This document shows, one piece after another, positions 1 to 25,397 of a DNA stretch of 64,000 nt. A program made the position numbers and the translations under genes. How positions within the stretch are numbered: position 1 is the stretch's first letter; the number at the start of each line of letters is the position of its first letter. The notes beneath the pieces were generated by a model that was not told where the DNA came from, searched no databases, and saw nothing but the letters and a program-made list of their open reading frames with translations. Origin of the DNA: an uncultured bacterium (GTDB taxonomy: Bacteria > JAGOEH01); contig CAZWDO010000001.1 of NCBI GenBank assembly GCA_964632485.1, positions 1 to 64,000 of the forward strand, given 5' to 3'.

Positions 1-7
1 CCGATGG

Positions 8-7954: not shown

Positions 7955-7964
7955 CACTGACGGG

Positions 7965-7991
7965 GGCGGTTCTGAACCATGCAGAACCGCC
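7965..7991 (+). terminator. Hairpin after the giant surface protein gene
   Basis: ggcggttctg-N7-cagaaccgcc; no clear U tract. Confidence 0.5.
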
Positions 7992-8061
7992 TTCCATGTA
8001 TTGAGTTATTGCCGGCAAAGTTGCCTTTTTTCGTTAATGTAATGCAGGGTAATATGGTAAT

Positions 8062-9867
8062 TTGAAATCATTCAGTAGGTACTCGATGGTTGCTTTTATT
8101 CGCATTTTTATTATCGCATTGCTTTTATTTACGAGTCTTCAAGCCGATCCGCGTGATTCACTGGTCATGGCGAAGCGGAAATTCAACCAGGCCATCAATC
8201 AATATGCTGGCAATCCTTCTTCGGCATTATCGTCTCAGGCAATTGCAAGACTGAAGACTGATCGGGAAATTCTGAAACGAACAATTAGCGCTCAAGTTCA
8301 TCGAAATCCGGTGTCCGGCATTGAGATTGTTCCTGTTTATAGTTCGTCTCGATTTGAAGTATTGTCATTTTATTCGTATGATTACACGTTAGCCAGTAAT
8401 CGTGTCATTATCAACTTGCGCAATAAAACCTCTAATTTTTACGATTTCGTGAAAGTGAATTTTTTTCTGATAAAAAACAATCAGGTTGTCAGTACCGACT
8501 ATACCTACATTGATTATGAAACGTACGGTTATGCCGGAATGGCTCCCTATTCGCAATCGTTTTTAGAGTCCTTTATTGATAATGTCGATTTTGATGAAAT
8601 ACAACTCACGTTAGAATGCTCCCTGACCACTGCCGAAGATTTACTCTTTGATCAGATGTTCGGGATTTCCAATTTTCAAATCGATTTTGACGAGCATGAA
8701 TGGTCTGGTGATTTGAATAATCTAACGGGAAACAGTGTCGAGTTCGCTTCGGTATATTTGTGTTTTTATAAAAACGGAAAGATGATGGATTTTGATTATA
8801 CCTATATGGATTACAAGAATCCGCCCAATGTAAGATTTTCATACGCAGTCGATTCACCGGACGAATCAGAGAAAATTGTTCTCTGGAACTATAAAACGAC
8901 GGCTGTCAACTTAGCGGGTTGGACCCTGGGCAATAAGGAACAACCCGATGCGTATGTGATTCCTCTTGCTACTTGGGTGGATGCCAATCGCACGATCACT
9001 TTCACCCATGATCAATTGAATTTTTCTATCGCTGATGACGATGAAATTCTGTATCTAAAAGACAATACAGGCGCCTTGGTCGATATTTATTCAGATGATA
9101 CACATTATCTGTTTGGCTCTAACGAATCCTGGCATTTTGAGGGGTATGCGGATGATGAGTGGGAATACGATTATTACAAAACGTTGGTGAGTTATTCGAC
9201 ATCTTCATTGAGTGGCGCCGACAATGTAAGCCCGAATATCCCGTTATTCGCGAATATGTCGTACGAGGGAGATAAAAACCAGACATTGACTTTTTCGGCT
9301 TTTCTCGCAGATTACAATGGGGGCGCTGTAAAGTGGATGATTGATTGGGGAAACGGCGCACAAAGCGGATGGACGAATGCATCGGGTTCAAAATCCATTA
9401 GTTCGATCAACTATGCCTATCCGGCGGCAGGAATTTATTATATCAGAGCGAAGGCTACAGATCAGGCTGGGGGGCTTTTTAGATCGCAAGCGGAGTCGGG
9501 GTGGTCGGATTCGGTGCAGGTTACCATTCACGAGTCGCACGATCCTTTGTCGATTGACACTGACTATCTGTCGCCGGGCGGCATGAGAATGATCACGGCA
9601 TTGCAGCAAAACTATCCGAATCCGTTCAATCCGTTCACCACCATAGAGTATTGCGTCGGTGAGAATAGTCTTGTGCGGCTTGATATCTTCGATATCCGGG
9701 GTAATCTGGTCCGGAATCTGGTCCATTCCGCACAGGGAACCGGAGCGTATCGCGCGATCTGGGACGGCAGGGACAACCGGAGAATGACAGCGCCGTCGGG
9801 TGTTTATCTTTATAAATTGACTGTCGGAGATCATCAACTGGCACGAAAGATGATTTATATCCATTAG
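8062..9867 (+). CDS. Secreted protein with lamin-tail-like and PKD domains and a FlgD-Ig/T9SS-type C-terminal domain
   Basis: Signal peptide (alternative start ATG 8086, ...LFTSLQA|D); 'NLAGWTL...DEILYLKD..G.LVD' (LTD-like); 'IDWGNG...Y...GIY.IRAKATD' (PKD); 'LQQNYPNPFNP...SGVYLYKL'. Confidence 0.8.
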   Translation: MKSFSRYSMVAFIRIFIIALLLFTSLQADPRDSLVMAKRKFNQAINQYAGNPSSALSSQAIARLKTDREILKRTISAQVHRNPVSGIEIVPVYSSSRFEVLSFYSYDYTLASNRVIINLRNKTSNFYDFVKVNFFLIKNNQVVSTDYTYIDYETYGYAGMAPYSQSFLESFIDNVDFDEIQLTLECSLTTAEDLLFDQMFGISNFQIDFDEHEWSGDLNNLTGNSVEFASVYLCFYKNGKMMDFDYTYMDYKNPPNVRFSYAVDSPDESEKIVLWNYKTTAVNLAGWTLGNKEQPDAYVIPLATWVDANRTITFTHDQLNFSIADDDEILYLKDNTGALVDIYSDDTHYLFGSNESWHFEGYADDEWEYDYYKTLVSYSTSSLSGADNVSPNIPLFANMSYEGDKNQTLTFSAFLADYNGGAVKWMIDWGNGAQSGWTNASGSKSISSINYAYPAAGIYYIRAKATDQAGGLFRSQAESGWSDSVQVTIHESHDPLSIDTDYLSPGGMRMITALQQNYPNPFNPFTTIEYCVGENSLVRLDIFDIRGNLVRNLVHSAQGTGAYRAIWDGRDNRRMTAPSGVYLYKLTVGDHQLARKMIYIH

Positions 9868-10133: not shown

Positions 10134-11705
10134 ATGAAAAAATTCAACGTTACCGGGCTTTGCATCCCGGAACGCCATTACATGGTCGATACCCGGCACA
10201 AACTGGCGCATATTATGGCCATGATCGAACAAGGCGAATATTTCACCATCAACCGGCCCCGGCAATACGGCAAGACGACCACGTTTTTTAGTCTTCGAAA
10301 CCTGTTGAGAAATAAAAGTGATTATTGTGTCATTTCTACCAGTTTTGAGGGAATCGGGGATGATATTTTTCTCAATGAAACCAATTTTTCAGGACGTTTT
10401 TTGGGCATTCTGGCCAATTCTCTGCGGTTTCAGGATTCCCAATTTTCTGCATATTTAGAGAATTTGAATCAAGGCGCCGCCAATCTGGATCAGTTATCGC
10501 TGAAGATTACGGAGTTGGTTCGGCATATCGGGCGCCGGTTGGTATTGATGATCGACGAGGTGGACAAGAGCTCGAACAACCAATTGTTCGTGAGTTTTCT
10601 GGGAATGCTGCGCAACAAGTATTTATCAGCCGCAGCCGGTGATGATGCGACGTTTCACAGCGTGATATTGGCGGGGGTGCATGATGTGCGGACGTTGAAA
10701 TTGAAGCTGCGGCCGGATGAGGAGCGCAAGTACAACAGTCCATGGAACATTGCGTCGGAGTTCACGGTGGATTTGGGGTTCGACGCCGACGAGATCGCGA
10801 CCATGCTGGAGCAGTACCGCTCAGAAACGGGAGTGGAGATGGATATATCAGCAGTTGCGCAGCGGCTCTATTTTTTCACGGGCGGGTATCCGTATCTGGT
10901 GAGCCGGGTATGCAAGGAGATCGATGAACGTTTGCTTCCGGACCGCGAGCTTCGCGCATGGACGGTCGGCGACGTGGACGAGGCGGTGAGTCGCATCCTC
11001 TATGAACGCAACACCAACTTCGACAGTTTGCTGAAGAATCTGGAGAATCATCGGGAATTGCTGGAATTTGTCACATGTATGATCCTGGGCAGCCGGGAAT
11101 TTAGTTTTGTGGCGCAGGTGCCCTGGATCGAACTGGGTTCTATCTACGGACTTTTCCGCAACGAAAATCGCAAGTTGAGAATTCATAACCGAATATATGA
11201 AGAGCTGATCACCAACTACATCACGGCCAAAGAGGAATATTTGGGCGAACGGGCGATTGCCGGGGATGCGATCCAGGCTTTGTACCTGAAGCCGGAAGGA
11301 CGGTTGGACATGGAGAAGCTTTTGTTGAAATTCCAGGAAGTGATCCGCGAGAAGTACAGCCAGACGGATGCGATGAAGAGCGATGAGTTTCTGGAGAAAG
11401 AATTGCGCTTGTTGTTTTTGGTGTTTCTCAAACCGATTATCAACGGGGTGGGATTCTCGTTCAAGGAGGTGGAGACGGGCGCGGAGAAGCGGCTGGATAT
11501 CGTGGTGGTGTTCCGGGATGAAAAATTTGTGGTGGAGCTGAAGCTATGGCGGGGCGAGAGCTATCACCGGGAGGGGATGGAGCGGTTGAAGGGCTACATG
11601 CAGGCCGAGGGGGTGAACAAAGGCTATATGCTGATCGTGGATAAGCGCCGTGAGAAGACTTTTACCAGCGAGACGGAGGATGGTATCTTCCAGGTCTGGG
11701 TATAA
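10134..11705 (+). CDS. AAA-like ATPase with C-terminal PD-(D/E)XK nuclease domain
   Basis: Walker A-like 'RPRQYGKTT', Walker B 'LMIDEVD'; C-terminal 'EVET..KRLDIVV....FVVELK'. Confidence 0.85.
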   Translation: MKKFNVTGLCIPERHYMVDTRHKLAHIMAMIEQGEYFTINRPRQYGKTTTFFSLRNLLRNKSDYCVISTSFEGIGDDIFLNETNFSGRFLGILANSLRFQDSQFSAYLENLNQGAANLDQLSLKITELVRHIGRRLVLMIDEVDKSSNNQLFVSFLGMLRNKYLSAAAGDDATFHSVILAGVHDVRTLKLKLRPDEERKYNSPWNIASEFTVDLGFDADEIATMLEQYRSETGVEMDISAVAQRLYFFTGGYPYLVSRVCKEIDERLLPDRELRAWTVGDVDEAVSRILYERNTNFDSLLKNLENHRELLEFVTCMILGSREFSFVAQVPWIELGSIYGLFRNENRKLRIHNRIYEELITNYITAKEEYLGERAIAGDAIQALYLKPEGRLDMEKLLLKFQEVIREKYSQTDAMKSDEFLEKELRLLFLVFLKPIINGVGFSFKEVETGAEKRLDIVVVFRDEKFVVELKLWRGESYHREGMERLKGYMQAEGVNKGYMLIVDKRREKTFTSETEDGIFQVWV

Positions 11706-11803
11706 GGGAGCGGTTATTGTAGGAGCCTTCCCGCGGCCTTTTTTTTCTTGCGGGCTTGACCCCACTCCGACTTCGGACCAGGAATCCAGTTTTTTTCCCC
11801 TTC

Positions 11804-11916
11804 GATTCCGGATCAAGTCCGGAATGACGGAGGTGGCGGTTACCCATGGATTCCGGATCAAGTCCGGAATGACAGCGGTGGTTACTCATGGATGCCGGGT
11901 CGAAGCCGGTATGGCA
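11804..11916. repeat. Tandem CGTC-type REP palindromes (2 perfect, 1 degenerate)
   Basis: gattccggatcaagtccggaatgac at 11804 and 11849, degenerate copy at ~11890; ~45-bp period. Confidence 0.85.
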
Positions 11917-12121
11917 GAGGTATGGATTTGGATAGATCCGAGAGTGAATGAATATAAAAAACAATTATTAAGCAAACTTCAACAAACCTGAACAATCTAT
12001 TAAGAAATATGTTTTTCCCCTTGATTTTTTTGGAAAATTTATTAATTTAGGATGATTCGGGATAACTGTCTTAACCGGCAGTTGAAAATAAGGATAATTA
12101 AATTAATTCGGGAGGTGACCG

Positions 12122-12613
12122 ATGCGGCTTCTTCTTGTTCTCATCATAATTTTTAGTTTGATAATTTCCTGCGCGCCCACTCTGAGGTTCGATCAGACGT
12201 GTGTCAATTGCATTAAATCGCAGCGATTGCTCTGCAAGGGAGATGAATGCCCCAGTACCTTCCTTGACGGGGCTGATTGTATTGTGTCTATTATTGAAAC
12301 CGGTGAGAATATTTATTTGAATCTTATTTTGAAGAAGGAAGGCATCGGCTTGAAAGAAAATATACCGATTTGTATAGCGAAGGCTAATGGTAAATTCTTT
12401 TTATGCGGGGAAAAGTTTAAGAATTTATGGATACTGTATCCCAAAATCAATAACAAAGCAAAATTTTTTCCTATCGAACTGACTTCCGGGGAAATTAAAA
12501 AACCAGTCTTTTCCTTCAACAAGAACTTGCTTCAATTGAAGGGCGATAATTTGAAAAAGAAAACGTATATAATAGATCCTGAATCGAACGAACTGACAGA
12601 AATCGAAAAATAA
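12122..12613 (+). CDS. Cys-rich putative lipoprotein, unknown function
   Basis: Strong RBS gggaggtg; hydrophobic leader ending in lipobox 'LIISC'; CxxC plus further Cys. Confidence 0.75.
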   Translation: MRLLLVLIIIFSLIISCAPTLRFDQTCVNCIKSQRLLCKGDECPSTFLDGADCIVSIIETGENIYLNLILKKEGIGLKENIPICIAKANGKFFLCGEKFKNLWILYPKINNKAKFFPIELTSGEIKKPVFSFNKNLLQLKGDNLKKKTYIIDPESNELTEIEK

Positions 12614-12627
12614 TCCGGGGGGTGAAC

Positions 12628-13968
12628 ATGAAGAAAAATGTTGTTGTATTTGTGTTGTTTATTCTGATGTTGAGCATCGCAGCCTGGGCTCAAACGACTG
12701 AAGATTATCAGAGTTGGCAGTTAAAAATTCAATCCATATTGGACAAGGATATGTTAAGCGATACTGATAACGCTTTCCTTGAAAATGAGTTGAAAAAATC
12801 CGAAACGAGATTCGGCGGTAATCATAAGCAGACGGTAAAAAGTAAGAATAGAGAAATTCGAAAAAAAATTGAGGAGGTGAAAAGATATAGCGATCCGGGA
12901 CTTGATAAAAAAATCGAAGTCCTTGTTCAAAAAATTGATGCTATCAGTAAAAAAGTTCAGCAGTATCAGCAAACAATAGATTCCCTTGAACGAGACAATA
13001 CTCGTAGTAAACGAAAAATATCCGAATTGGATAATTTAATTGATAAATATGAACATTCGAGGAAAAGCATCGATTCCCTGTTGGAGCAATTTATTGCCAT
13101 TATGCCGAAAGCAGATGAAGAAGCGCTTTCAAGCGGGTCTTCAGGGTTTATCGATACTCAGGCGAAAATATTTAGTAATCTTTGCAAGTATTTGCAGTTG
13201 TTATCTGAAAACATTGGCTTATCTTTAAAGGTTCTACGCAGCGATAATGAATCGTTAGCGGGATATCGGGAAACATATCAGCGGAATCGCCATTATCCTG
13301 ATTTTCTGGAAAAATACATAAAACAGCGGGACAAACTTAAAGCCGATAACAATTTGTTAACTAAAGCTCCTTGTATTCATAAGCATCTACCGCTGATTGA
13401 AAGCCGGATCGACTCTATGAAGCAATTCATCGAAGGCGATTCAGATCCAACGGCGCCAGGTCTATGGCGCATTTTTTCAGCTTATCTCAAGGGCGCTTTC
13501 AAGGTTTCCGGAATGCCATTACTGATTGTGATCGTCACTCTGGGGGCGCTCGCCATCGTATTGTTGAGCGCGCGAATATTCATGAAACCCGAATTGATCA
13601 TCTCCTACCAATTATATGAAATGAACCCAAAATCATTTGTCGCCGGCATCGACCAATTCAGAAAAACCAAATTCATGATTCCGGATGACCCCGAAAAAGG
13701 CCAGTTTTTTAGAGTCAATTATCCGGTTTTTAAAAATACTCTTAATCGGCTTCGGAAAAAGCAGCGCCTTTATGAACTGGTTCCAAATGCAGCGGTTGAA
13801 CTGGAAAACGGCAATATGGATTATCATTTAAAGCGGATTGAACTGCCGTTTCAGGATGAGGAATATTATGTTGAATTCAGATCGGTTCGCGATGACAAAA
13901 ACTATCGGTTGACGATTAAAATTGAAGAATTTAATTTAAATTTCAATGATGTGGAAGCGGAGGGATAA
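12628..13968 (+). CDS. Single-pass membrane protein: signal peptide, long extracytoplasmic coiled coil, TM helix, ~125-aa cytoplasmic tail
   Basis: MKKNVVVFVLFILMLSIAAWA|Q; heptad-rich 'IEVLVQKIDAISKKVQQYQQTIDSLERD...'; TM 'LLIVIVTLGALAIVLLSA'. Confidence 0.75.
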   Translation: MKKNVVVFVLFILMLSIAAWAQTTEDYQSWQLKIQSILDKDMLSDTDNAFLENELKKSETRFGGNHKQTVKSKNREIRKKIEEVKRYSDPGLDKKIEVLVQKIDAISKKVQQYQQTIDSLERDNTRSKRKISELDNLIDKYEHSRKSIDSLLEQFIAIMPKADEEALSSGSSGFIDTQAKIFSNLCKYLQLLSENIGLSLKVLRSDNESLAGYRETYQRNRHYPDFLEKYIKQRDKLKADNNLLTKAPCIHKHLPLIESRIDSMKQFIEGDSDPTAPGLWRIFSAYLKGAFKVSGMPLLIVIVTLGALAIVLLSARIFMKPELIISYQLYEMNPKSFVAGIDQFRKTKFMIPDDPEKGQFFRVNYPVFKNTLNRLRKKQRLYELVPNAAVELENGNMDYHLKRIELPFQDEEYYVEFRSVRDDKNYRLTIKIEEFNLNFNDVEAEG

Positions 13969-13969
13969 C

Positions 13970-16531
13970 ATGAGAAATTTCTTTGTGGTATGTATTGGCG
14001 GTACCGGTATTTCTATCGGCAATTCGATTAAAAATCGTATCTGGGCCTTTCGCAAGGCTCACGAATTGAAAAAGGCCGATTTGGGGTTTAATATTGAATT
14101 CCTCTTTTTCGATACGACATCCGATACAGCCAATGATAAGCCGGGAAAAACTTTAGAAGAGGGCATGAACAAGATTTTTCGTGTAGAAACTGATGATTTT
14201 ATCAATTTGGGCGGTGTATTTGGGGATGATCCCATTTTCAATTATGAGAATATTGTCAAGGGGGGATTGGTCAGCCTCCGTAACGCCCTCAAGGCCGGGG
14301 CCGGCGGTTTGACCCCCAGCCACGCGCGGGCGGCGTTGATCTATCGTTTCAGAAATCACAATGGTGTCAATATCCAAAAAACCATCGAGACTAAAATCGC
14401 CTCCCTGGTCTCCAACCTCAGCGCCAATGATGAACTCTACTTGTTTGTCTGCACGAGTCTTTATGGATCTTCCGGCATTGGCGCCTGTATCGATTTACCA
14501 TATTATCTCAGTCATGCCTTTGATGAATCCTTGCGTAAGAATAACAAGAACAATTCCCTGAAGCGAGTGGGCGTTTATATTATCCCTGACCAAACTCTTT
14601 TGGAATCCTTGAACAGCCCGGCGGATTTACATGAAAAGGGCGGACGCGCCCTCATCGCTATGGAAGAAATGCTGCCCAAGGCCATGCATCCGCTTTGGAT
14701 TTACGAATCGCCGATCGTCAACAAGAAAATGCTGGTTTCCGACCTGTTTGATTTTCTTTATGTGCTCGACCCGAAATATGATGCCAAGGGAAAAGCTGAA
14801 AAGCTGTATGATCCGACGAATATCGGCATCGATCCCAATCGCAAGGAATCCTCCATGGTAATCGTCCCCGCTGAGTTCGTGTATAATGCCATCATCAATA
14901 AGGGGTTTTCCGATCAGGCTTTTTCCGCCAACGCCTTTCAAAGCGCCTTGGAGGCTAAGACCAATGCCATCAAGATGAAACCGGATTCGTTTCCCTATTT
15001 TAATTCTTTTGGCATGCTGGTCAATCGCCAGGATGAGGAATTGACATATTTGAGCTATTATTATGAAACGATTCAAAAAGTGCATGACAAACTGGTCAAT
15101 ACCACCCAACCTTCGATCATCGCGCGCAACCTCGACGAATTGATCAGCCTGGTAAAAAAACGCGTGAAGGAATACTCGAAAAGTTTCGGTCTTGAGACGA
15201 TTTCCCAGAAAATTATCGAAGATGTCAAGGTGTTCTTCAGGGAAAAGGCCGGACGTGAAACAATTTGTCTGGATAAGATCATTGAAATCCTGGATAATGT
15301 TTCCATCAGCGATTATGGGTTTTCTCTGAATTCGGAAGTCAAGAAAATTTATACGATTGTAAAGAATCGCATCAAAGAGTATTCAACTGAACTGAAGAAA
15401 ATCAATCAGGATTACAAGAATTCTTTGAAAGCTTTGAAATCCGAATATGAACGTTTCATCACCATAAAAAATGAAATCACCAGCCATTCTCTAAAATACA
15501 TCAACATCGATTTGCTGGATTATCATTATGATAAAAATGATCTAAGCGCCAGTCTGAAAACAATAGTCGGCGAATTTCTCAATTGTAATCCGCGCTTCAG
15601 GATTTCCGACGGCATCCATATCCGCAGTCCGTTTAATGTTATGGAAAATAAAACCGCCACGCATTACGGGAAGTATGTTTATCCGGATATCCATCTTTCA
15701 CTGGAAACCGGTCAGCAACCCCGTTTGGCATGCAGTTACCCGGCTAATCTGATTAACCGCCCGGACGATGAACTACAATCCGAAAATGTTCTGTTGAAAA
15801 TCTATACCAGCATCAAGTTTACCGATCTTCAGTTATTCAAGTACAATACCAGCAATGGCGCGCTCAATGCCAAACTGTATGATCCGAACAATGGAATAGA
15901 ACTAACGCCGGATTGGAAGGATAAGTTTCTGATTTTAAACAGTTTCACCGAGGTGGAGCCCAGAACGATCAGCAATATTTACAATGAAATTGCGATTGTC
16001 GCGGATGGCGGAGTGAAGTACTTGATGCTGCAAGGATTGAGGACAACCATCATGCAGAATCTCGATGCATTTATCGAAACAATTTATACTGATGATTATT
16101 TGGCGGCGATTAAAAGTAAACTTCCTTATGAAAACTCACGGTTACGGGATGTTTTCAAGAATCTGATCAGCATCAGCCCTTTGCATAAGCATACGCTGGA
16201 CACTTTGTCGGGTTTGATCAATCTCAGCCGCGATGAAAGCGCGCGTTTCATCAAAGTGATGCGAAAAAATGACAGATACTTTCATCTTTGGTTCGACCCG
16301 TGGGAGAATTTTTTCGCCATTCCCACATATTCGAAATTGTTGGGAGTGGACATTAACGATCGGCTCAATCATACCATCTGTATCGGATTGATGTGCGAAG
16401 GCTGTAAAAATTGGGGTTTTTTGCCCATGTTGGGCAAGCATTGGTGCCAGTCCCAAACCGCTGTTCCGGAATGGAATAATCCGGATCAACTGGATGATTC
16501 AGCGAAAAGCGCATACAATTGTTTTTATTGA
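13970..16531 (+). CDS. Divergent FtsZ/tubulin-like GTPase (Tubulin_2/FtsZl-like) with long helical C-terminal region
   Basis: 'VVCIGGTG' (T1 loop), 'FLFFDT', 'AGAGG' (T3-like), 'CTSLYGSSGIG' at the position of the S-x-x-GGTGSG signature, 'VGVYIIPD'; ATG 1 nt after the upstream stop, RBS ggaggg. Confidence 0.75.
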   Translation: MRNFFVVCIGGTGISIGNSIKNRIWAFRKAHELKKADLGFNIEFLFFDTTSDTANDKPGKTLEEGMNKIFRVETDDFINLGGVFGDDPIFNYENIVKGGLVSLRNALKAGAGGLTPSHARAALIYRFRNHNGVNIQKTIETKIASLVSNLSANDELYLFVCTSLYGSSGIGACIDLPYYLSHAFDESLRKNNKNNSLKRVGVYIIPDQTLLESLNSPADLHEKGGRALIAMEEMLPKAMHPLWIYESPIVNKKMLVSDLFDFLYVLDPKYDAKGKAEKLYDPTNIGIDPNRKESSMVIVPAEFVYNAIINKGFSDQAFSANAFQSALEAKTNAIKMKPDSFPYFNSFGMLVNRQDEELTYLSYYYETIQKVHDKLVNTTQPSIIARNLDELISLVKKRVKEYSKSFGLETISQKIIEDVKVFFREKAGRETICLDKIIEILDNVSISDYGFSLNSEVKKIYTIVKNRIKEYSTELKKINQDYKNSLKALKSEYERFITIKNEITSHSLKYINIDLLDYHYDKNDLSASLKTIVGEFLNCNPRFRISDGIHIRSPFNVMENKTATHYGKYVYPDIHLSLETGQQPRLACSYPANLINRPDDELQSENVLLKIYTSIKFTDLQLFKYNTSNGALNAKLYDPNNGIELTPDWKDKFLILNSFTEVEPRTISNIYNEIAIVADGGVKYLMLQGLRTTIMQNLDAFIETIYTDDYLAAIKSKLPYENSRLRDVFKNLISISPLHKHTLDTLSGLINLSRDESARFIKVMRKNDRYFHLWFDPWENFFAIPTYSKLLGVDINDRLNHTICIGLMCEGCKNWGFLPMLGKHWCQSQTAVPEWNNPDQLDDSAKSAYNCFY

Positions 16532-16570
16532 ATTTACTCGACCTGATTTAATTGTAATGGAGCGCTGACA

Positions 16571-19500
16571 ATGCCTCTTCATGTTTTCCGACATAGCGAT
16601 TTTGATTACACGCATGAACGGATGGCTTTTTATCGGATGGTCGATCTGCTCGACAACCATTTTTCCCGACGGGAAACCATTTGTTTGCTGGCAAATGCTC
16701 AAGTCGTGGATGGCAAGAAAAAAGTCAGCCCCGATATGATTATTTTCAAAAAAGACGCCATCGCTGTAATAGAAATGAAGTCATGGATCGGACAGGTTAA
16801 GTTTCCGACCGAAGATGAAGATAAATATAATTGGGATAATTGGGAATTAGAGCATGAAAATAAAAAAATCCCTCTTGAAGCTTCCAGAACCCCAATTTGG
16901 CAGCTCGATAACAATACGGCATGTTTTGTTGACTTTCTTACTCAAAGCGAAGCCGCTTTCGCTGATGAAATAAGCCAGGGTTCCTTATGGGGATTAACCA
17001 GTAAGGTGCTGCTTTTTTCGGAAGATGACAGTTCCTTTTTCAATGCAGCTCCTCCATTGTACTGGGATAATACGTATGTTTGCAAATTGTGGAATAAAAC
17101 GGATCCCAGATTTGATTTTTGTAAAGTTATTGAAAGTTTAACCACAAAAGCCAGGCATCGGAAAAAAGATAGTCGAACACAAATTTGTCTAACTGAAAAT
17201 GCTATTTTGAAGATTGCCGGATTATTAGACGCCCCGGAAGTGTCGCTGGAATTGCTCAAGAGAGAGCGTTTGCGCTGTGAAGAAGACTTTTTTATCAATC
17301 CCGGATATGGTTATATCAGCATTATCGCCAACTCCAAGAAAAAAATCAATGAATTGAGCCCGGGATTAGTTCCCGTCAATTCCGCCTACAAAGGCGCGCC
17401 TTTGCCTGTTCGATTGATCGCCTATTACCGTTCATGCCTCATGGTCGAATCCATGCTTAGTTCCTTGTTGGTTTTCGATAAACACTCCACTTATTATCCG
17501 ATTGAATCCTCAAACAATCTTTTTTTCGATCGTGGCGATAAATTCCTCCTTCCCAAAAATGAAATCCCATCCGGGTTTTTTCAAAATCCCAATTCCTTGG
17601 TTTACGGTTATTTTTTCATTGTCTCCAGGAGTATTTTCAGATCGAAGCTTCAATGGGAGGGATGCCCTCTTTTTACCACTCGCGTACGTTTGGAGGAGAT
17701 CGGCGAGCATTATATTTGCAATCCATTGGTGCGTGATGAATTGACAATTAATCCATACGCTCTGAAAAGGATTGAGAAATTCAAATATTATTCGGATGAA
17801 GAAATTAAAAACTATATTACCGATAAAGAAAAAATTGTTGATATAGGTGAGCGAATAGAGAGTGTATTGAAGGATATTCAGATTGAGATGCCTGTCAATT
17901 TCAATGAAAATAGAAAATTTGAATACAAGTATCTTAGTGAAGGGCTATTGCCTGTTTCCATTATTTTTATATCGACGACAGGTTTTTATACCCATGTTAT
18001 CCGTGATCTGGAGAAAATCGAAAACGACTGGACTGATTGTCTGAAGCAAGGAAATTGGCCGGAGGATATTGCTTGGTCTTTTTTAAATGGGATCGAAGCA
18101 AGCGAATTGACATATAAATGGGCGCCGCATGAGCTAAGCATTGTGGGAGCCAATTACGAGCAATCCAAGGCTATTTCTTTGTCTCTGAACAAAAAGAACA
18201 AGCTTCAGATAATATCTGGTCCCCCGGGAACCGGAAAATCCCAAGTGATTATCAATATTGCCGCCAATTGCCATGCTGCAAAGCAAAAATTATTGTTTTC
18301 AAGCTACAATAATGTGGCTGTCAATAATGTTGTTGATCGCTTGAACTCAATTTTCGCGGATTTGCCGCCGATAATGCTTCGAACCGGCACTCAGGATGAG
18401 AATGAACGGACAATCGAAAAATTGGATCGATGTCAGGCGCCTAAGTCCCAAAATAAGGCAGAGGTGTTTTCAGCGCTTGAGAGAATTAGCGCGATCAATA
18501 CTCAATTAAGCGCAATTCAGCAAAAATATCAACAATATGAGAAATTGACTGATGAGTTCGAAAAAATCCAAAATCAAATCAGACAGTTAAAAGATCAGCA
18601 TTCTTTGATTTTTTTTCGCATTGATTGGTATAATGAGCCAATCAGCGCTCTTAAGTGGATCGATGAGTGGCAAATTCTATACGATTCGTTGCTTTCCTCT
18701 CGCAGTGAAATCGTGAAACTGACCGATGATATGAATTTTATCCTTAAAGAGCATTCCTATCTGAATTCGATAAACTGGTGGGCGCCCTTTCAGCAAAATC
18801 TTAATTTGGATGCCTGGAAGCAAGCTATTCATCGTTTTGAACTGGTTATACAGCATTCCGTCAATTTTTTACGTCGGTTTCGCATCATAAAGAAAAACAA
18901 ATTCTCGCTAAGGCATGCTTTGACAAAAAAACGATTTGTCGCTTTTTTTCATAATCTGGTAAATATACGTTTAAGCGAAGAATTGCCGGTTTTTCTTTTA
19001 CAACTGCTCGGAAAAAAAATAATTCCTGATTTGAATTGTCTATATCCAATAGTCGAACAATTGCAAGAATTGAATTCGCGCATGGCCAAAATTGTTTGTC
19101 ATTTTGGACAGAATAGATTAATGAATCAGGAATTTGAATTGATTGAATATAGGCAAAGTCTTGAATATATATACTCAAGGTTAAAAACCGGTTTATTTCC
19201 ATTTGATATCTCGTTTCTATATTCAGAAGATACCCGGGATGATTTGAGTATTCTCAATTTTTTAAAAGCTGTTAAAGCTTGTTTTGAAGATTATCGAAGG
19301 GTACAAATGGAATTGAGCTCAATTTCGGAAACCGAGTTGCTTGACAAGTGGGAAAGATTGAATCAGGAAAAACTTATTTATTCCCTTAAGATTCTCCAAG
19401 ATCAAGCTGACTATAAAAATCTGAACGATGTGATCTCTGGAATTAAAAATTCCTTGTCGGGAAATATCAAGATGACAAACGATGCCATGAAATTGTTCCC

Positions 19501-20440
19501 GGTCTATTCCACTACCAGTTTACTCACAGGAAAATATATTTCTCTGAGTGCCGGCATATATGATCTTGCTGTCATCGATGAAGCCTCACAATCTGATGTT
19601 GGATCGTTTTTGCCGGTTTTGTATCGCTCCAGGCGATGTGCCGTTATTGGAGATGAAATGCAATTAACGCCAATTATTACACTGCCGAAGGAAATCGATG
19701 CAAAGCTGGCGTTTTCATTTTCGTTGTCCGAGGATGAATTTCAACGGTTCGGATATTCAAATGTCAGCATGTTGGATCTGGCGTGCGATCGAATTATTCG
19801 GGCTAATGGGCGACGTGTTTTGTTGCGCAATCATTATCGTTGCCACCCGAATATTATTGAGTTCAGTAATCGCTTTTTTTATGGCAATCTGCTGCGGATT
19901 TGCACGTTGGATGAAAATCAACATGGAATTTTCTGGCATGAAGTTGATGGAAAATCTTATGAACGTTGGTATAATCCGGATGAAATCAAAGAAATCGGCA
20001 GAATCGTCCATCATCTGCTATTAAAGCGACAATATCGCCATGATGAAATTGGCGTTGTAACTCCGTTCCGGTTGCAAGCGGAACGAACTATCGAGGAACT
20101 TCGTTCTAACAATTTATATTCGGGTGAAAATGGCGCGATTACGGTTTCCACGGCTCACAGGTTTCAGGGAAGCGAGCGAAAGGTCATGATTTTTTCACTT
20201 GTGATTGGCGATAAAATGCCAGAATCGACTGTCAATTGGATTCACGATAGTAGAAGCAGTTCGAAAAACCTGTTGAATGTTGCCTTGACTCGCGCGCAAA
20301 GACAGTTGATAATTGTGGGAAATAGAAGCCGTTGTATCTCTGCCGGAGGTTTGCTGCGTTCTTTGGCGGAATATGTCGCTCGAATCGATAGTAAGCGAAA
20401 CAATGAATTCTCCCTTGACAAATCTTTAATAATGACTTAA
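16571..20440 (+). CDS. NERD nuclease fused to a Upf1/DNA2-like superfamily 1 helicase
   Basis: NERD 'HE...N...PDMIIF..DAIAVIEMK'; helicase motifs GPPGTGKS, DEASQ, GDEMQL, HYRCHP, VVTPFRLQ, TAHRFQGSE, NVALTRA. Confidence 0.88.
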   Translation: MPLHVFRHSDFDYTHERMAFYRMVDLLDNHFSRRETICLLANAQVVDGKKKVSPDMIIFKKDAIAVIEMKSWIGQVKFPTEDEDKYNWDNWELEHENKKIPLEASRTPIWQLDNNTACFVDFLTQSEAAFADEISQGSLWGLTSKVLLFSEDDSSFFNAAPPLYWDNTYVCKLWNKTDPRFDFCKVIESLTTKARHRKKDSRTQICLTENAILKIAGLLDAPEVSLELLKRERLRCEEDFFINPGYGYISIIANSKKKINELSPGLVPVNSAYKGAPLPVRLIAYYRSCLMVESMLSSLLVFDKHSTYYPIESSNNLFFDRGDKFLLPKNEIPSGFFQNPNSLVYGYFFIVSRSIFRSKLQWEGCPLFTTRVRLEEIGEHYICNPLVRDELTINPYALKRIEKFKYYSDEEIKNYITDKEKIVDIGERIESVLKDIQIEMPVNFNENRKFEYKYLSEGLLPVSIIFISTTGFYTHVIRDLEKIENDWTDCLKQGNWPEDIAWSFLNGIEASELTYKWAPHELSIVGANYEQSKAISLSLNKKNKLQIISGPPGTGKSQVIINIAANCHAAKQKLLFSSYNNVAVNNVVDRLNSIFADLPPIMLRTGTQDENERTIEKLDRCQAPKSQNKAEVFSALERISAINTQLSAIQQKYQQYEKLTDEFEKIQNQIRQLKDQHSLIFFRIDWYNEPISALKWIDEWQILYDSLLSSRSEIVKLTDDMNFILKEHSYLNSINWWAPFQQNLNLDAWKQAIHRFELVIQHSVNFLRRFRIIKKNKFSLRHALTKKRFVAFFHNLVNIRLSEELPVFLLQLLGKKIIPDLNCLYPIVEQLQELNSRMAKIVCHFGQNRLMNQEFELIEYRQSLEYIYSRLKTGLFPFDISFLYSEDTRDDLSILNFLKAVKACFEDYRRVQMELSSISETELLDKWERLNQEKLIYSLKILQDQADYKNLNDVISGIKNSLSGNIKMTNDAMKLFPVYSTTSLLTGKYISLSAGIYDLAVIDEASQSDVGSFLPVLYRSRRCAVIGDEMQLTPIITLPKEIDAKLAFSFSLSEDEFQRFGYSNVSMLDLACDRIIRANGRRVLLRNHYRCHPNIIEFSNRFFYGNLLRICTLDENQHGIFWHEVDGKSYERWYNPDEIKEIGRIVHHLLLKRQYRHDEIGVVTPFRLQAERTIEELRSNNLYSGENGAITVSTAHRFQGSERKVMIFSLVIGDKMPESTVNWIHDSRSSSKNLLNVALTRAQRQLIIVGNRSRCISAGGLLRSLAEYVARIDSKRNNEFSLDKSLIMT

Positions 20441-20508
20441 TTAATATATGGAAGCCCCGCCATTCTGCGCCATTCCGGGAAAGCGAGAATTTTTCATTTT
20501 TGTCCATA

Positions 20509-20534
20509 GATTCCGGATCAAGTCCGGAATGACG
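20509..20534. repeat. CGTC-type REP palindrome
   Basis: gattccggatcaagtccggaatgacg. Confidence 0.85.
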
Positions 20535-20577
20535 GGCAGGGTGAGGGGGCAGGGGGAAGGGGTATTAACGCCGGACC

Positions 20578-22107
20578 TCAGCCGATAAGCCAGTCGGCGA
20601 TATTGCGCGCTTCCCGCGAAAAGCCAATCCCTACCTTCACCAACTCCCGGACGTCCGATTGATACGGCTGCGCGTAGCCCTGCTCTTCAATCTGTTTCAA
20701 GGCCTCCTCCGACGATCCCATTTTGAACTCCATAACATAAATCCGCTCTTTCGTCTCCACCACCGCATCGATCCGCCCACGATGGGTCTGCACCTCGCAG
20801 GCCAGACGAACTCCTACCAGCTTCAGCGCAATATAGATCACCGATTGATAGTAGTATTCCAACTGATCAATAAATATCTGATAAGGGATAGAGGCAAAAA
20901 GGGAGCGCAAGGCCTGGATGAAAGATTCCATATCGCCGCTCTTCAGGGAGTCTTCCATACCGAAGATCAAGCTTCCGGTTTCGCTCTGAACCCGGTGACT
21001 ATAGGCTTCCAGCAGGTTGCTCAGCAAGGACACCCGCACCTCTTCGTTGGGATAGGAGAGATAATAACGGCCCGATTCGGCATCATATTCCTTGATGGTC
21101 AGATACCCAGTCTGGAACAGCAGGGAATAGATATCCAGCCGCCGCAACTCAAACTTATCGAAAAAGGCCTGGCTGACCGCCAGTCGGGAGAGCTTCTCCA
21201 CGTCAATCTGCTGATCCCGGATCGCTTCTGTCAGGAAGGTCGGCGTGCCGGTGGTAAACCAGAAATTCCGAAAATCCAGTTCCGCAAAAAGATTCAGGAT
21301 GGAAAAGGGATTATAAACAAACTGCCGACCATCCCAACTATAGCCGTTGTACCACCAGCGGATTTTCTCGTCGAGAGCTTTTCGGCTCAACTTGCTCTCA
21401 TCGCTCAACCTCCGCAGATATTCGTCGAAATAGCTTTCAATTTCCGATTCCGTATAACCCAACAACTGCGAATAATCCCTGGAAAGCGTCAGATCGCGCA
21501 AATTGTTCAGATCGCTGAAGATGGAAACCTTGCTGAATTTGGAGACCCCGGTCACGAATACGAAACGCAGACGCTCATCCAGTCCCTTGATCCCGGAATA
21601 GAAGTTTTTCAGGATATCGCGGTTGGCTTCGGCTTGGTCGATATCGGTCAGGTAGTCGATGATCGGCTTGTCGTACTCGTCGATCAGCAAAACTACGTTG
21701 GCCTGTTGGGAAAGCTCTTTCACCATGTCTATCAAAATATCCTTGGGGTCGCTGCAGTTCAGCTTGAGTTGATATTCATCCGCTATATGATTGAGATAGA
21801 TTTCCAGGCCTCTGGAAAGTCCATGAACTTTGTAATTGATTTGCGAATAATCGATATGGATCACCGGATGAACCGGCCAATCCATTTTATCGTAAATCCA
21901 GGTTTCGCGGAACAATTCGCGGTTCCCAGTGAAGATTTCCTTGAGGGTGGAAACCAGCAGGGATTTGCCGAAGCGCCGCGGTCGGGACAGGAAGTAATAT
22001 CCGGCGGAAGTCACCAATTGATAGATTATGGGAGTTTTATCCACATAGATAAACCCTTCAGAGATTAATTTTGAAAAGGATTGGATGCCGATGCCGAGTT
22101 TCTTCAT
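20578..22107 (-). CDS. AAA-ATPase-like protein with PD-(D/E)XK (PDDEXK_9-type) C-terminal nuclease domain
   Basis: 'GIQSF...YVDKT...FLSRPRRFGKSL', 'LLIDEYDKP', 'WYNGY', 'GRIDAVVE...MEFK'. Confidence 0.92.
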   Translation of the reverse strand: MKKLGIGIQSFSKLISEGFIYVDKTPIIYQLVTSAGYYFLSRPRRFGKSLLVSTLKEIFTGNRELFRETWIYDKMDWPVHPVIHIDYSQINYKVHGLSRGLEIYLNHIADEYQLKLNCSDPKDILIDMVKELSQQANVVLLIDEYDKPIIDYLTDIDQAEANRDILKNFYSGIKGLDERLRFVFVTGVSKFSKVSIFSDLNNLRDLTLSRDYSQLLGYTESEIESYFDEYLRRLSDESKLSRKALDEKIRWWYNGYSWDGRQFVYNPFSILNLFAELDFRNFWFTTGTPTFLTEAIRDQQIDVEKLSRLAVSQAFFDKFELRRLDIYSLLFQTGYLTIKEYDAESGRYYLSYPNEEVRVSLLSNLLEAYSHRVQSETGSLIFGMEDSLKSGDMESFIQALRSLFASIPYQIFIDQLEYYYQSVIYIALKLVGVRLACEVQTHRGRIDAVVETKERIYVMEFKMGSSEEALKQIEEQGYAQPYQSDVRELVKVGIGFSREARNIADWLIG

Positions 22108-22113
22108 ACAGGT

Positions 22114-22141
22114 AATATAGGCGATTTCGATTAAAATGCAA
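22114..22141 (-). promoter_or_regulatory. Promoter of an apparently leaderless AAA-ATPase transcript
   Basis: Minus strand TTGCAT-N16-TATATT-N6-ATG; no SD. Confidence 0.55.
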
Positions 22142-22183
22142 GAAAAAAAAGATGGAGTTCAGAATGACGCTGGCGGCGCCCAT

Positions 22184-22210
22184 GGATTCCGGATCAAGTC
22201 CGGAATGACG
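22184..22210. repeat. CGTC-type REP palindrome
   Basis: ggattccggatcaagtccggaatgacg. Confidence 0.85.
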
Positions 22211-22502
22211 CTGTCGGCGCCCGGAGTGACGTCGATTGGACTACCCATGGATGACAAATTGATTTTTTATAGTGGCCGTCGAGTTTCAGTTTTTTTTAAA
22301 AAAATAATAAAAGGATTTAAACGCGTCAATATTTGACGTCTTTCACCCCCATATTGTAAAAAAGCTAAAACAAGGAGGTGTTTTCCGGCGATTGAGTTAA
22401 GATGATCGGTGATTGATTGATTGATGAAAGGAGGTATGAAGATCATTTTAAATTTGTTGAGCGGTATATTGTGTTAACAAAAATAACGGAAAGGTGGACA
22501 AT

Positions 22503-22715
22503 ATGTCTATTTGGAATACTCTTGAAAAAGGATTTAATAAATTTCAGGAAATGGCGGAAAAAAAGTCGAATCAAATGTATGGTGATATGAATCGGTATGA
22601 GAATCAATATCTATCATTGGATGATGATGAATTGAAGGAAATTTACAAGTCTGAATCCGGTGTAAAAAAATATGCGGCTGCCAACGTTCTGAAAGAAAGA
22701 GGTTATGGTAAATAA
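22503..22715 (+). CDS. Small hypothetical protein (70 aa)
   Basis: RBS aaggtgg before ATG; protein-like helical composition. Confidence 0.6.
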   Translation: MSIWNTLEKGFNKFQEMAEKKSNQMYGDMNRYENQYLSLDDDELKEIYKSESGVKKYAAANVLKERGYGK

Positions 22716-22795
22716 ATTCAGACAATGTGCGGTTAAATTTATTACACCTGTCAATAAACATAATATCCATTTGTTAATTCATTAAAAGGGATTCA

Positions 22796-23008
22796 ATGAT
22801 GGCAAATTATTACTGTGAATATTGTGGAGCAAAAGAGTCAAGTATTTTTAAGCTCACATCGGAGTATTGCCCAAAACACCCCGACGGAAGCGGTAAGGGC
22901 AAGCACAAACTATATGAAGGAAGTGAAAAAGACAGTTATACCTGTAAATACTGTGGCCAATCATTTGATTCATTGTTTCGACTAACTTCAACAGGAGTTT
23001 CGTCATAG
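22796..23008 (+). pseudogene. Zn-ribbon repeat protein truncated by the IS end
   Basis: Repeat 1 'YYCEYCG...LTSEYCPKHP'; repeat 2 'YTCKYCG...LTS' stops exactly at the IS inverted repeat (22992). Confidence 0.7.
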
Positions 23009-23970
23009 AGAGTTGAATATACCAGTTAACTCATTAAACGCCAATGAAAAATTTAGTTTATCATTGGTGGGGGTAAATCAACTGGTATTGAACTGGCGCA
23101 AATTCAGCTCCTCAATAAAACGTTTGTGAATTTTACTGGGTTCGGTAATCATGGTTTGGGTAGATTCCATCGAATAAATAATCACCGCTTCTTCTATCTC
23201 CTCAAGTATTTCGACAATGTTTGAAATACTCATTTCGATCCCGCTGTCCTTGCTGCTCTTTTCCACCAACTTGATCAGCAGATAAGCCAACACGTTGACA
23301 AACGATTGGACGACGATTTTCGAATCAGTCCAATGATAGATCGGGGTATAATCGACAATATCCCCGCCCTTAAAATTTCTGAATAGATCTTCGATTTTGT
23401 ATTTATCATGATATAATCGGATCATTTCCTCTGCCGACATACTCAGATCGTAGCTGAACAACAAGCGTTTTCCAAATTCTTTCTTTTTTTGGATCGCTTC
23501 GGTTTTCACCTTGAAGTGAATTTCCCGTTCATCATCGTTGCATAGCAGATTATATCCCAGGTAGCGTTCGGCTTTCGAATTTTTGATATAGAGTGTCCGG
23601 ATTTTGTCGTCGCTGCTCTTCGATTTGCCGCGAATCTCTTCCTTGATCAGCCGTTGAACTTCAAGTATCCGATTTTCAAATGAGCGCAACTGATGGTTTT
23701 TTTCTATCTCGGAATAGGTCATCACAACCCTGGCTTTCCGATTAAATACAATCTCTTCACGATCCGTATAGCGCCATTTCGAGTATTCACGGTCAATTTG
23801 CTTCAGTTTGTTCAGCTTTTTTGTGATTCGTCCCATACTTACAATATAACAATCAATCAATTGTTTGTCAGTGTTTATTTATATATAAAAATACCCTCAC
23901 AGACTTCATTTTGTAACCCATTGCAAAAAAATAACTTGCCAAAGAAAATTTAATTTTTACGAAACTCCTG
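22992..23970 (-). mobile_element. Internally deleted IS1634-family element with 12-bp terminal inverted repeats
   Basis: caggagtttcgt (22992-23003) and acgaaactcctg (23959-23970); no target-site duplication seen. Confidence 0.8.
23078..23836 (-). pseudogene. IS1634-family transposase remnant (first codons fused to the C-terminal part)
   Basis: 'LYHDKYKIEDLFRNFK...PIYHWTDSKI...FVNVLAYLL' is typical of the IS1634 C-terminus; only ~250 aa; N-terminal catalytic region absent. Confidence 0.8.
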
Positions 23971-24123
23971 ATTAATAGGGTCGGTATGATGCAGTTTTGC
24001 CAAATTCTAAATAACGGTAGTTTTGCCTGTCCCGCATTTGCCAACTATCAATACAAGACGGTGGTATAGCTCTTCCGCTGCTTTGATTGATGCGATCACT
24101 TTATTTTCAATTGGCTCCGCCAT
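23971..24123 (-). pseudogene. brxF: 5' fragment of BREX type 3 P-loop protein BrxF
   Basis: Translates MAEPIENKVIASIKAAEELYHRLVLIVGKCGTGKTTVI*NLAKLHHTDPIN; internal TAG; ends at the IS inverted repeat; RBS aagga. Not in the ORF track. Confidence 0.75.
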
Positions 24124-24519
24124 TGTCTATTCCTTGCTAAAACCCTTGATTTTTATTCAGTTCTCAAATGTTTCGTTCATAATGTTTCTTGCATATATGT
24201 CCTTTTACATAACAAATGAGAGTCTCCTTTAACCTAACAATTGTAAGGATGCAGGACAATATTGGTATCTAAGCCAAATAGTATTTATTTTACGAAATAG
24301 CGGAAATATCATACTTTTAACCTCCCCTCATACTATAATCGTTAAAAGATTATTTCTAACAGTATCATAATTTAAAAATTTCTCAAATCAATATAGCGAA
24401 CTAGCAGCCATTTGTCGACTATTTTTTATTGTTGACAAATTTTTTGTGCTATCGTTATATTGCAAAAAAAGGAACAGATTATGAAAAATAATCAAACCGT
24501 GTCCATGATTGCAATTGAC

Positions 24520-24633
24520 CCCAATCCATTGCAAAACATGTTGCTTAAGTTCAACTTTGGATTCTACTCGGATATGTTTTAACACTTTTCTAGTCAATTT
24601 AATAAAAAGACTTTCTATCAAATTTAACCACTC
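24520..24633 (-). pseudogene. IS630-family transposase C-terminal fragment
   Basis: 'WLNLIESLFIKLTRKVLKHIRVESKVELKQHVLQWI' matches the IS630 WLNxIE motif region. Confidence 0.7.
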
Positions 24634-24718
24634 TCGTCAGCGGGGTGGAATTACAATTTTCAACGACGTCTCACATCGTCCAGGTGAATTTGTTTTGACT
24701 ATCCCGCCGTTGATGCTG

Positions 24719-24802
24719 GTTTCGGACTTGATCCGGTATCCAGCTTTTAATTGTGGATTCCTGCCTACGCAGGAATGACAGAGGGGAAAGGCAGGAATGA
24801 CA
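24719..24802. repeat. Inverted pair of CGTC-type REP-like palindromes
   Basis: ttcggacttgatccggtatccag followed by ggattcctgcctacgcaggaatgaca and a partial gcaggaatgaca. Confidence 0.7.
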
Positions 24803-24979
24803 GAATCGATTACATGGATGTCGCTAAGGAGAGGGTATTGGGGGGAAAATTGGAAGTGTCGGGGTTAGTGGATGCCGGAGACGCTCGCAATGACCAGGGC
24901 GCTGGCACATGATTGTGAGCGTTGAGTTATCAACATAAATTATTTGCCACACGCAATTTTTAGATATGACAAAAATCAC

Positions 24980-25008
24980 TTGACAATTTAACCAAATCAA
25001 TCTATAAT
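24980..25008 (+). promoter_or_regulatory. Consensus sigma70 promoter
   Basis: TTGACA-N17-TATAAT. Confidence 0.8.
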
Positions 25009-25079
25009 TGAATAGGAGCGATTTCCCCTGATCGCGATTGAATACCGATGGTGCATTGTCAATCTGGACGGAGGATAAC

Positions 25080-25361
25080 ATGACCCCGGATCATTACCAA
25101 AGTATGATCCAAAGCGCACTTTTTGGCTATAAATTTTATAAAGTAATTCCCAATGCTCAGGGAGCCCTGATCGATTACCGGTTTTTGGAAGCCAACCCGG
25201 CTTTTAAGCGCCTGACCGACCTGCAGGTCGCGGATATTGTCGATCGTCCCGTTATAGAAGTGGTCCCTCCCATAGAACAGGACCGTATCGACTGGATCGG
25301 ATTTTATGGGAGAATTGGGCGCGATTGTGGAATTGCATGGTTAAAACAGATCGCACCATAA
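25080..25361 (+). pseudogene. Truncated PAS-domain sensor (N-terminal fragment)
   Basis: RBS ggagg; 'DYRFLEANPAFKRLT.L....IV.R...EV.P......WI..YG' PAS signature; stops mid-domain. Confidence 0.65.
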
Positions 25362-25397
25362 AAGGTGGACTTGAACCCCCAACCCTGAGGAGAAGGT

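Follow-up and report, generated by a model that had tools for sequence, protein, structure and literature searches.

A conserved lipoprotein, membrane rod and divergent FtsZ-like protein trio beside a candidate nuclease-helicase in an uncultured bacterium of the JAGOEH01 lineage

Four packed genes and the recurrence of three of them

We analysed a 64,000-nt stretch of DNA from an uncultured bacterium (GTDB lineage JAGOEH01; assembly GCA_964632485.1, contig CAZWDO010000001.1, positions 1 to 64,000), hereafter the window. Within it lies a block of four co-oriented genes, g1 to g4, encoding a lipoprotein, a bitopic membrane protein, a divergent FtsZl1/Tubulin_2 protein, and a protein that joins a NERD-like nuclease domain to an Upf1-like superfamily 1B (SF1B) helicase (Table 1). 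A preliminary description of the sequence had proposed the block as an undescribed four-gene conflict or antiphage system. The tight packing it reported was confirmed by open reading frames (ORFs) with homologue-supported starts, which give gaps of 14, 1, and 39 nt; for g3, homologues begin at the second ATG (family alignment A1) and the database entry P0005 has 853 aa. The block was also more AT-rich than the two flanking ATPase genes, as described: GC was 0.37–0.43 in g1–g4 against 0.51 and 0.49 in the flanks, and GC at third codon positions (GC3) was 0.40–0.53 against 0.65–0.67. The host belongs to a GTDB phylum of only three genomes. Neither g1 nor g3 was found in the other two (92% and 98% complete), so we regard the block as accessory.

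The first three genes recurred together. An HMMER search of 1.84 billion representative proteins with g3 returned two true relatives (35% and 29% identity) and one coiled-coil match. For one relative the encoding DNA was located, on two metagenome contigs from one organism (L003/L004); the third family member, P0007, is encoded on a 25.6-kb contig. In L004 the three genes encode proteins of 166, 449, and 828 aa (the last being the g3 relative), keep the order of the window, and overlap by 4 nt; identity is 49% to g1, 24% to g2 along the protein including its tail, and ~32–35% to g3. This trio is likewise AT-richer than its own flanks (GC 0.26 vs 0.35–0.37). The g1-g2-g3 set is a conserved, tightly coupled module whose order is kept in a second, distant organism.

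The helicase did not recur with the trio. None was present at L003/L004, and BLAST of g4 against every ORF at the loci fetched returned g4 itself only. Downstream of g3 in L004 are a 102-aa ORF that overlaps the g3 end by 20 nt, a DUF6804 protein, ferritin, DinB, and a RadA-like gene, and no vWA, Pkinase, or GTPase families were detected in the L004 neighbours. The only homologue with the full g4 architecture (1151 aa, 31% identity to g4 over residues 3–509) had a NERD match of 29.8 bits, which passes the cut-off, together with AAA_11 and AAA_12. It is encoded in genome G284 (locus L025, contig C120), where neither g1 nor g3 was found; the g3 profile used there does detect g3 in the window's genome. 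An AbiJ_NTD3-TIR gene follows it and a ParE toxin gene is close by, making up a small defence/toxin-antitoxin cluster (4393–9354) at the end of a contig. In the few cases examined, helicase homologues thus occur apart from the first three genes, and we dropped the helicase as a component of the system. With two independent trio loci and one clear helicase homologue to compare, we have one case of a trio without the helicase and one of the helicase without the trio, so each statement rests on one case. With moderate confidence, we read g1-g2-g3 as one envelope-anchored FtsZl1-type module and g4 as a separate candidate defence neighbour.

Table 1 Features of the g1–g4 locus, in window positions.
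Feature	Position	Strand	Description	Basis
Flanking gene	10134-11705		AAA_35 only	
REP-like repeat copies	11792-11873	.	upstream of g1	
g1	12122-12613	+	163 aa, lipoprotein	ORF list, translation
g2	12628-13968 (alternative start 12622)	+	446 aa, bitopic membrane protein	
g3	13970-16531 (alternative start 13946)	+	853 aa, divergent FtsZl1/Tubulin_2 protein	
g3 T1 GGTG	13994-14014	+		family alignment
g3 T3-like GAGGLTP	14297-14317	+		family alignment
g3 T4-like YGSSGIG	14459-14482	+		family alignment
g3 C-terminal Cys region	16373-16528		residues 810-861	
g4	16571-20440	+	1289 aa, NERD-like nuclease domain and Upf1-like SF1B helicase	
g4 PD	16727-16744		residues 54-55	
g4 ExK	16769-16783		residues 68-70	
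g4 Walker A GPPGTGKS	18218-18241		residues 550-557	
g4 IDEASQ (DEAS)	19574-19591		residues 1002-1007	
REP-like repeat copy	20497-20535		directly 3' of g4	
Flanking gene	20578-22107	-	AAA-ATPase_like and PDDEXK_9	
REP-like repeat copy	22156-22210		beyond the neighbouring PDDEXK_9 gene	

The lipoprotein and rod pair

The g1 protein has the lipobox LIISC, whose Cys17 was invariant in 28/28 family members. A protein collection held 11 further relatives of g1. Four more Cys were conserved, two of them invariant and two present in 90% or more of the 28 sequences. A Cys-rich motif occupies residues 25–44 (QTCxxCIKSQRxxCxxxxCP), and ETGENIY is a further conserved motif. The mature part was all-beta in an AlphaFold2 model with a mean predicted local distance difference test (pLDDT) of 84.8, and in that model it resembles a partial beta-propeller. 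Foldseek of the model against the PDB gave at least 500 matches at E ≤ 10 and none at E ≤ 1e-3. The matches listed were mostly propeller fragments with template modelling (TM) scores of 0.33–0.43, and because they were weak we assigned g1 to no fold family. No Pfam or NCBIfam family matched g1.

The g2 protein has a signal peptide with predicted cleavage at AWA-Q, a periplasmic helical/coiled-coil rod of ~270 aa, a transmembrane helix at ~298–320 by hydropathy, and then a 127-aa cytoplasmic tail (residues 320–446). Pfam gave sub-threshold coiled-coil-type matches only, and no Pfam, NCBIfam, or PADLOC family covers the protein (the PADLOC matches were again weak and of coiled-coil type). Cys186 and Cys249, both periplasmic, were invariant in the g2 family alignment (A4), from which L016 was omitted because its end was masked. 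The lipobox, signal peptide, transmembrane helix, and tail together support the envelope-to-cytoplasm topology originally predicted, from a lipoprotein through a transmembrane coiled-coil rod to a cytoplasmic tail. In an atlas comparison the tail matched FHA-domain clusters, and others that share no family, at scores of 0.77–0.81 and structural TM scores of 0.51–0.63. An FHA identity was set aside, since the atlas scores were under the bar and Pfam found no FHA in g2.

Searches of genome assemblies located the lipoprotein at 17 loci, most of which carry Ignavibacteria or Kapabacteria labels. A g2 relative came directly after g1 in 15 of them; one of the other two was cut by a contig end and one had no g2 that we could find. 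No g3 relatives were found in any of these 17 genomes. A cytoplasmic tail was present in only three of the 17 g2 family members examined, those of the window, L004, and a third locus, L019, and both g3-bearing loci are among the three. The 14 remaining relatives were short (323–346 aa) and ended in the transmembrane helix and a few basic residues. In the g1 tree the lipoproteins of the three tailed loci were the longest branches. Approximately unbiased (AU) tests rejected neither a clade of the window and L004 (p-AU 0.47) nor one of all three (p-AU 0.36), and a clade is not shown.

Because g1 and g2 are adjacent in 15/17 loci and show translational coupling, we infer an envelope pair in which the periplasm-facing lipoprotein would bind the bitopic inner-membrane protein, with the rod in the periplasm. 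Because both g3 loci are tailed and g2 and g3 are separated by 1 nt or overlap by 4 nt, the added cytoplasmic tail would bind g3 and position or regulate it at the inner face of the membrane. A complex prediction of g3 (residues 9–861) with the 127-aa tail scored 0.00 in two runs in which the controls also stayed unfolded, and it speaks neither for nor against such contact.

Neighbours of the pair were mixed and mostly housekeeping, and included RidA, TerB, a dihydrolipoyl-dehydrogenase-like protein, an ABC ATPase, a cytidylyltransferase, and a DNA methylase. With the pair widespread without a tubulin-like gene and in mostly housekeeping neighbourhoods, the antiphage or conflict role first proposed found no support for the trio. 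At L017 (11621–13607) the pair is directly followed by an N6_N4 DNA methylase with an overlapping 381-aa gene; no other neighbour scanned at the 17 pair loci was defence-like.

The distribution of the pair also bears on a different explanation, in which g1 and g2 are a housekeeping envelope pair (e.g., a periplasmic tether or spacer) and g3 was inserted beside them with no functional tie. The wide occurrence of g1 and g2 without g3 would fit such a history, as would the tailed g2 at L019, where no g3 was found, and a distant look-alike pair that keeps a conserved housekeeping context in Bacteroidota (five loci fetched, of 53 genomes). Insertion without a tie does not readily account for a g1-g2-g3 order and a 1-nt gap or 4-nt overlap that have been kept despite g3 proteins only 32–35% identical, nor for g3 lying beside g1 and g2 in 2/2 loci examined and never apart, and both g3 loci carry the rare tailed form of g2. 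We consider this explanation very unlikely.

The Bacteroidota look-alikes came from weak matches of the g1 profile (E 1e-7 to 1e-3) to ~160-aa lipoproteins in 53 further genomes of the 401 sampled. At the five loci fetched (L041–L045, from genomes G175, G099, G071, G187, and G047), the lipoprotein is followed by an overlapping ~407-aa protein with a signal peptide, a helical region, and a C-terminal transmembrane helix. The conserved neighbours there are a phosphoribosyltransferase, a cytidine/adenosine-deaminase-family gene, and a histidine phosphatase. This look-alike pair falls in no Pfam or NCBIfam family, and we do not claim homology of the g2 family with the 407-aa partners (hhalign probability 55%, E 1.2e-4, N-terminal coiled coil only).

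Genes for type IX secretion cargo adjoined the g1-g2 pair in 6/19 distinct loci (L004, L009, L013, L015, L018, and L019) and lay within two genes of it in three more (L006, L007, and the window, at 8062–9867). The adjacent cargo were large proteins of the VIT, C25 peptidase, sortilin-like, FG-GAP, and LTD/PKD kinds. By match counts and a rough estimate of gene number, such cargo makes up ~3–5% of genes in these genomes. Some of the loci are close kin, and the link to the pair is suggestive only. The host itself has type IX secretion, with Por_Secre_tail domains in the window and 106 matches genome-wide.

The tubulin-like protein and known systems

In a whole-genome scan with the Pfam family Tubulin_2 (PF13809), g3 was the single match (43.2 bits, cut-off 27, E 4.1e-11, residues 14–310). 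An hhalign comparison of a three-member g3 profile with the N-domains of six typical Bacteroidota Tubulin_2 proteins gave a probability of 98.3% and an E of 1.7e-14, pairing GGTG with T1, GAGGLTP with the T3-like GAGQ, and YGSSGIG with GGTGSG. The GTPase-like N-terminal domain corresponds to P0003 residues 13–282, and the T1 GGTG and T3-like GAGGLTP were invariant in 3/3 family members. Both profile comparisons bear out the FtsZ/tubulin-like identity assigned at the outset, and membership of g3 in Tubulin_2/FtsZl1 is supported by sequence. The protein is an outlier of the family, since seven typical Bacteroidota members with complete N-domain matches scored 117–239 bits against 43 for g3 (an eighth genome was left out because its gene is split across contig ends).

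Beyond the N-terminal domain, the AlphaFold2 model (pLDDT 44) had long helices at ~361–513, strands at 582–646, and helices at 672–782. Residues 520–861 scored 0.77–0.78 to Tubulin_2 clusters of the atlas, below the level of a lead. Five Cys near the C-terminus (C812, C817, C820, C834, and C859, spaced Cx4Cx2C...C...C) were invariant in the three members and may form a metal site. Relatives are few: a word-based homology search with g3 returned the query itself only, pattern scans found none in genome or viral contigs, tblastn against plasmids and phages gave no match, and neither did a sequence search of the PDB.

The FtsZl1 proteins make up a large branch of the tubulin/FtsZ superfamily and were predicted in 2010 to be the centres of membrane-associated complexes (Makarova & Koonin 2010, PMC2875224). 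According to that study, a vWA partner occurs in the majority of FtsZl1 operons without defining them, and protein kinases or P-loop GTPases occur as partners too. Like the proteins and operons described there, g3 has an N-terminal GTPase-like domain, apparently followed by long helices and a further C-terminal region, and its gene lies beside membrane or secreted partners of no known family, the function being uncharacterised. Unlike typical FtsZl1 proteins, g3 is far more divergent, has YGSSGIG at T4, and ends in the region with five invariant Cys. In contrast to FtsZl1 operons as set out there, Pfam detected no vWA, protein kinase, P-loop GTPase, or OmpA in g1, g2, g4, or the flanks, which agrees with the preliminary remark that no vWA or kinase gene was visible; the partners here are instead a lipoprotein and a bitopic rod protein, which elsewhere occur together on their own. 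In five genomes with typical Tubulin_2 genes, no VWA_2 match lay within 10 kb of the tubulin gene, and the nearest was at 14 kb.

The locus can also be compared with GTPase-centric conflict systems (Kaur, Burroughs, Iyer & Aravind 2020, PMC7159879), which are reported in firmicutes and actinobacteria and are built around GTPases of the GAP1-N2 or DO type together with vWA and FNIII-repeat proteins. It resembles them in having a tubulin-family protein with a predicted C-terminal coiled-coil/helical extension and in encoding membrane proteins with extracytoplasmic domains alongside. It is unlike them in that GAP1-N2/DO-type GTPases, vWA, and FNIII-repeat proteins were undetected at this locus by Pfam. 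No Pfam, NCBIfam, or PADLOC family covers the trio as a whole. A literature search, which did not extend to the supplementary neighbourhood tables of the two papers, found no lipoprotein/rod/FtsZl1 module and no function for FtsZl1, the available part of PMC2875224 included. The best reading of the trio is a variant of the uncharacterised FtsZl1 membrane-associated modules, with the lipoprotein and rod as its anchor through the envelope.

The nuclease-helicase, its setting and the role of the module

The helicase part of g4 was clear, with Pfam matches to AAA_12 (98.3 bits) and AAA_11 (78.2 bits), Walker A and DEAS motifs (Table 1), and PDB sequence matches to IGHMBP2, Sen1, and Upf1. The NERD match was 19.0 bits, under the Pfam cut-off of 22.1, and the PD-(D/E)xK motif was present as PD and ExK. 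The earlier label of NERD nuclease-helicase therefore stands for the helicase and is weaker for the nuclease. The N-terminal 520 residues were matched in 3/401 sampled Bacteroidota genomes; for the N-terminal half, a word-based search returned the query itself only and tblastn against plasmids and phages found no match.

The antiphage proteins nearest to g4 are the Upf1-like SF1 helicases of Mokosh, Hhe, ProA, and PLuB, with which the PADLOC candidates PDC-S37 and PDC-M16A were grouped. The helicase core of g4 aligned with Mokosh MkoC (E 2.9e-55), MkoA (E 3.9e-45), and Hhe (E 3.2e-18) in PADLOC and with ProA (E 2.6e-27) in NCBIfam, and the N-terminus aligned with the first 122 positions of PDC-M16A (E 1.2e-14). 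NCBIfam scores were far under the cut-offs (Hhe 70.9 vs 2000, ProA 94.8 vs 1500, PLuB 108 vs 999). The matches to Mokosh, Hhe, ProA, and PLuB cover the helicase only, and the head of g4 is NERD-like, where helicase antiphage proteins of this group carry PLD or Vsr modules. Among the named systems (Mokosh, Hhe, ProA, PLuB, and Gabija) there was no whole-protein match to g4 and there were no partner models on g1–g3. The block accordingly matches no named system, as had been stated: no whole-protein match reached a family cut-off, and PADLOC matches were confined to the g4 helicase core, the g4 N-terminus, and weak coiled-coil noise. We know of no defence phenotype for the g4 family. Taken by itself, g4 would be self-contained, a NERD-nuclease/Upf1-like helicase such as occurs in defence islands, sharing the AT-rich accessory block. 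It may be co-transcribed with the trio and is not a conserved partner of it.

The four genes could still form a conflict system in which g1 and g2 sense a surface event, g3 relays or thresholds the signal, and g4 is the effector in a swappable slot, filled in L004 by the 102-aa ORF and the DUF6804 membrane protein. Tubulin-family proteins are described in GTPase-centric conflict systems with variable effectors (PMC7159879), the whole block is co-oriented and tightly packed, searches of both kin genomes turned up neither g1 nor g3, and the 102-aa ORF overlaps the g3 end in L004. Several further observations weigh against our separation of g4 from an FtsZl1-type trio. No terminator-like site was found in the 39-nt g3-g4 gap (site counts in the promoter/terminator scan equalled those of shuffled sequence), the GC3 of g4 (0.40) is like that of g1 and g2 and unlike the flanks, and copies of a repetitive extragenic palindromic (REP)-like repeat flank g1–g4 as a single block. 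A related strain from an independent sample yielded pieces of all four genes and no bridging contig among those listed. The absence of the helicase from a trio comes from a single comparison. For the trio itself, T4 in the g3 family reads [YF]GS[ST]GIG against the FtsZl1 signature GGGTG[ST]G, so GTP binding by g3 is unproven. The AlphaFold2 model of g3 from a three-row alignment (pLDDT 44.3, predicted TM score 0.30) was too poor for a fold search, and the tubulin fold is therefore assigned from sequence profiles alone. The tailed g2 of L019, in a genome where no g3 was found, means that the tail does not strictly require g3.

The missing terminator-like site, the shared GC3, the bracketing repeat, and the related strain therefore keep a system with a swappable effector in play. 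We nonetheless judge it unlikely. The only other trio locus examined has no helicase, the G284 homologue has a defence-type neighbourhood of its own and its genome yielded neither g1 nor g3, and g1 and g2 occur in 15 other genomes without g3 and with mostly housekeeping neighbours. PADLOC models miss g1 and g3 and give only weak coiled-coil-type matches to g2, and the window outside 10–22 kb is not a defence island.

The setting agrees only in part with the nuclease-ATPase region and BREX remnant described initially. A nuclease domain (PDDEXK_9) is present in the downstream flanking gene and not in the upstream one. No PADLOC match supports a BREX remnant, and the genome's two PglZ matches are on contigs C4 and C19, outside the window; no BREX genes were found in the window via PADLOC/PglZ, other Brx families not being searched singly. 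In ten ORFs at 10–25.4 kb (both flanks and eight ORFs at 22.1–25.4 kb), PADLOC gave no match except weak Cas4/PDC-S41 nuclease-motif ones. Housekeeping genes fill 26–64 kb. Apart from the locus the window is ordinary and includes CheB/CheR, histidine kinases, an NADH-dehydrogenase (complex I-type) cluster, CarAB, glycosyltransferases, and an amidotransferase.

The REP-like repeat has a unit of ~40–50 nt and contains CCGGAATGAC. A blastn search of 11780–11900 against the genome gave 47 matches, including both downstream copies in Table 1. Copies also flank the neighbouring PDDEXK_9 gene. This gene is itself multi-copy, with five near-full-length paralogues at 72–77% DNA identity on contigs C34, C37, C56 (two), and C60, one of which is immediately preceded by the repeat, and metagenome depth over it was 10–20x that over g1–g4. 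Among metagenome contigs assembled from three DNA sequencing runs, one from the probable source sample (run X1) joined 11856 to 20578 with 30 other letters between, skipping all four genes. We set aside a deletion variant as its origin: both sides of the joint lie in multi-copy sequence (the repeat and the PDDEXK_9 paralogues), and the joint was therefore treated as probably another, paralogous locus.

Two other parts of the window stood out in composition. Positions 1–8000 have a GC of 58–69% (36–53% elsewhere in the window) and encode CarboxypepD_reg/beta-propeller repeat proteins of very large size; the third has a type IX sorting tail. Positions 22100–25400 are gene-poor, with a GC of 37–38%, short ORFs only, and no PADLOC match. 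A 260-aa ORF there had a weak, sub-threshold match to the transposase family DDE_Tnp_2, and the stretch may be decayed mobile DNA.

A further possibility is trans-envelope signalling, in which an outer lipoprotein and a periplasmic rod would relay an event at the envelope across the membrane, through the g2 tail, to a polymerising g3 that licenses a downstream effector, the NERD-helicase here and small membrane proteins in L004. We hold this to be quite unlikely. If true, the device would be a tubulin-based analogue of the STAND-type or ZorAB-type relays from surface to nuclease.

Under our favoured reading of an envelope-anchored FtsZl1-type module with g4 as a separate neighbour, g3 would bind nucleotide and polymerise, and the trio would probably serve to organise or remodel the envelope or membrane, the role put forward for FtsZl1 operons in general, rather than to attack nucleic acid. 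Splitting the probably stand-alone NERD-helicase candidate from the module keeps a false four-gene system out of catalogues. The locus then represents a minimal, partner-defined version of FtsZl1, with three genes and a clear topology. It also comes with a natural control, as many genomes have the same lipoprotein/rod pair but lack both the tail and the tubulin-like gene. The contrast between tailed and tail-less loci poses the question of whether the tail recruits g3 to the membrane, and with what effect on the envelope.

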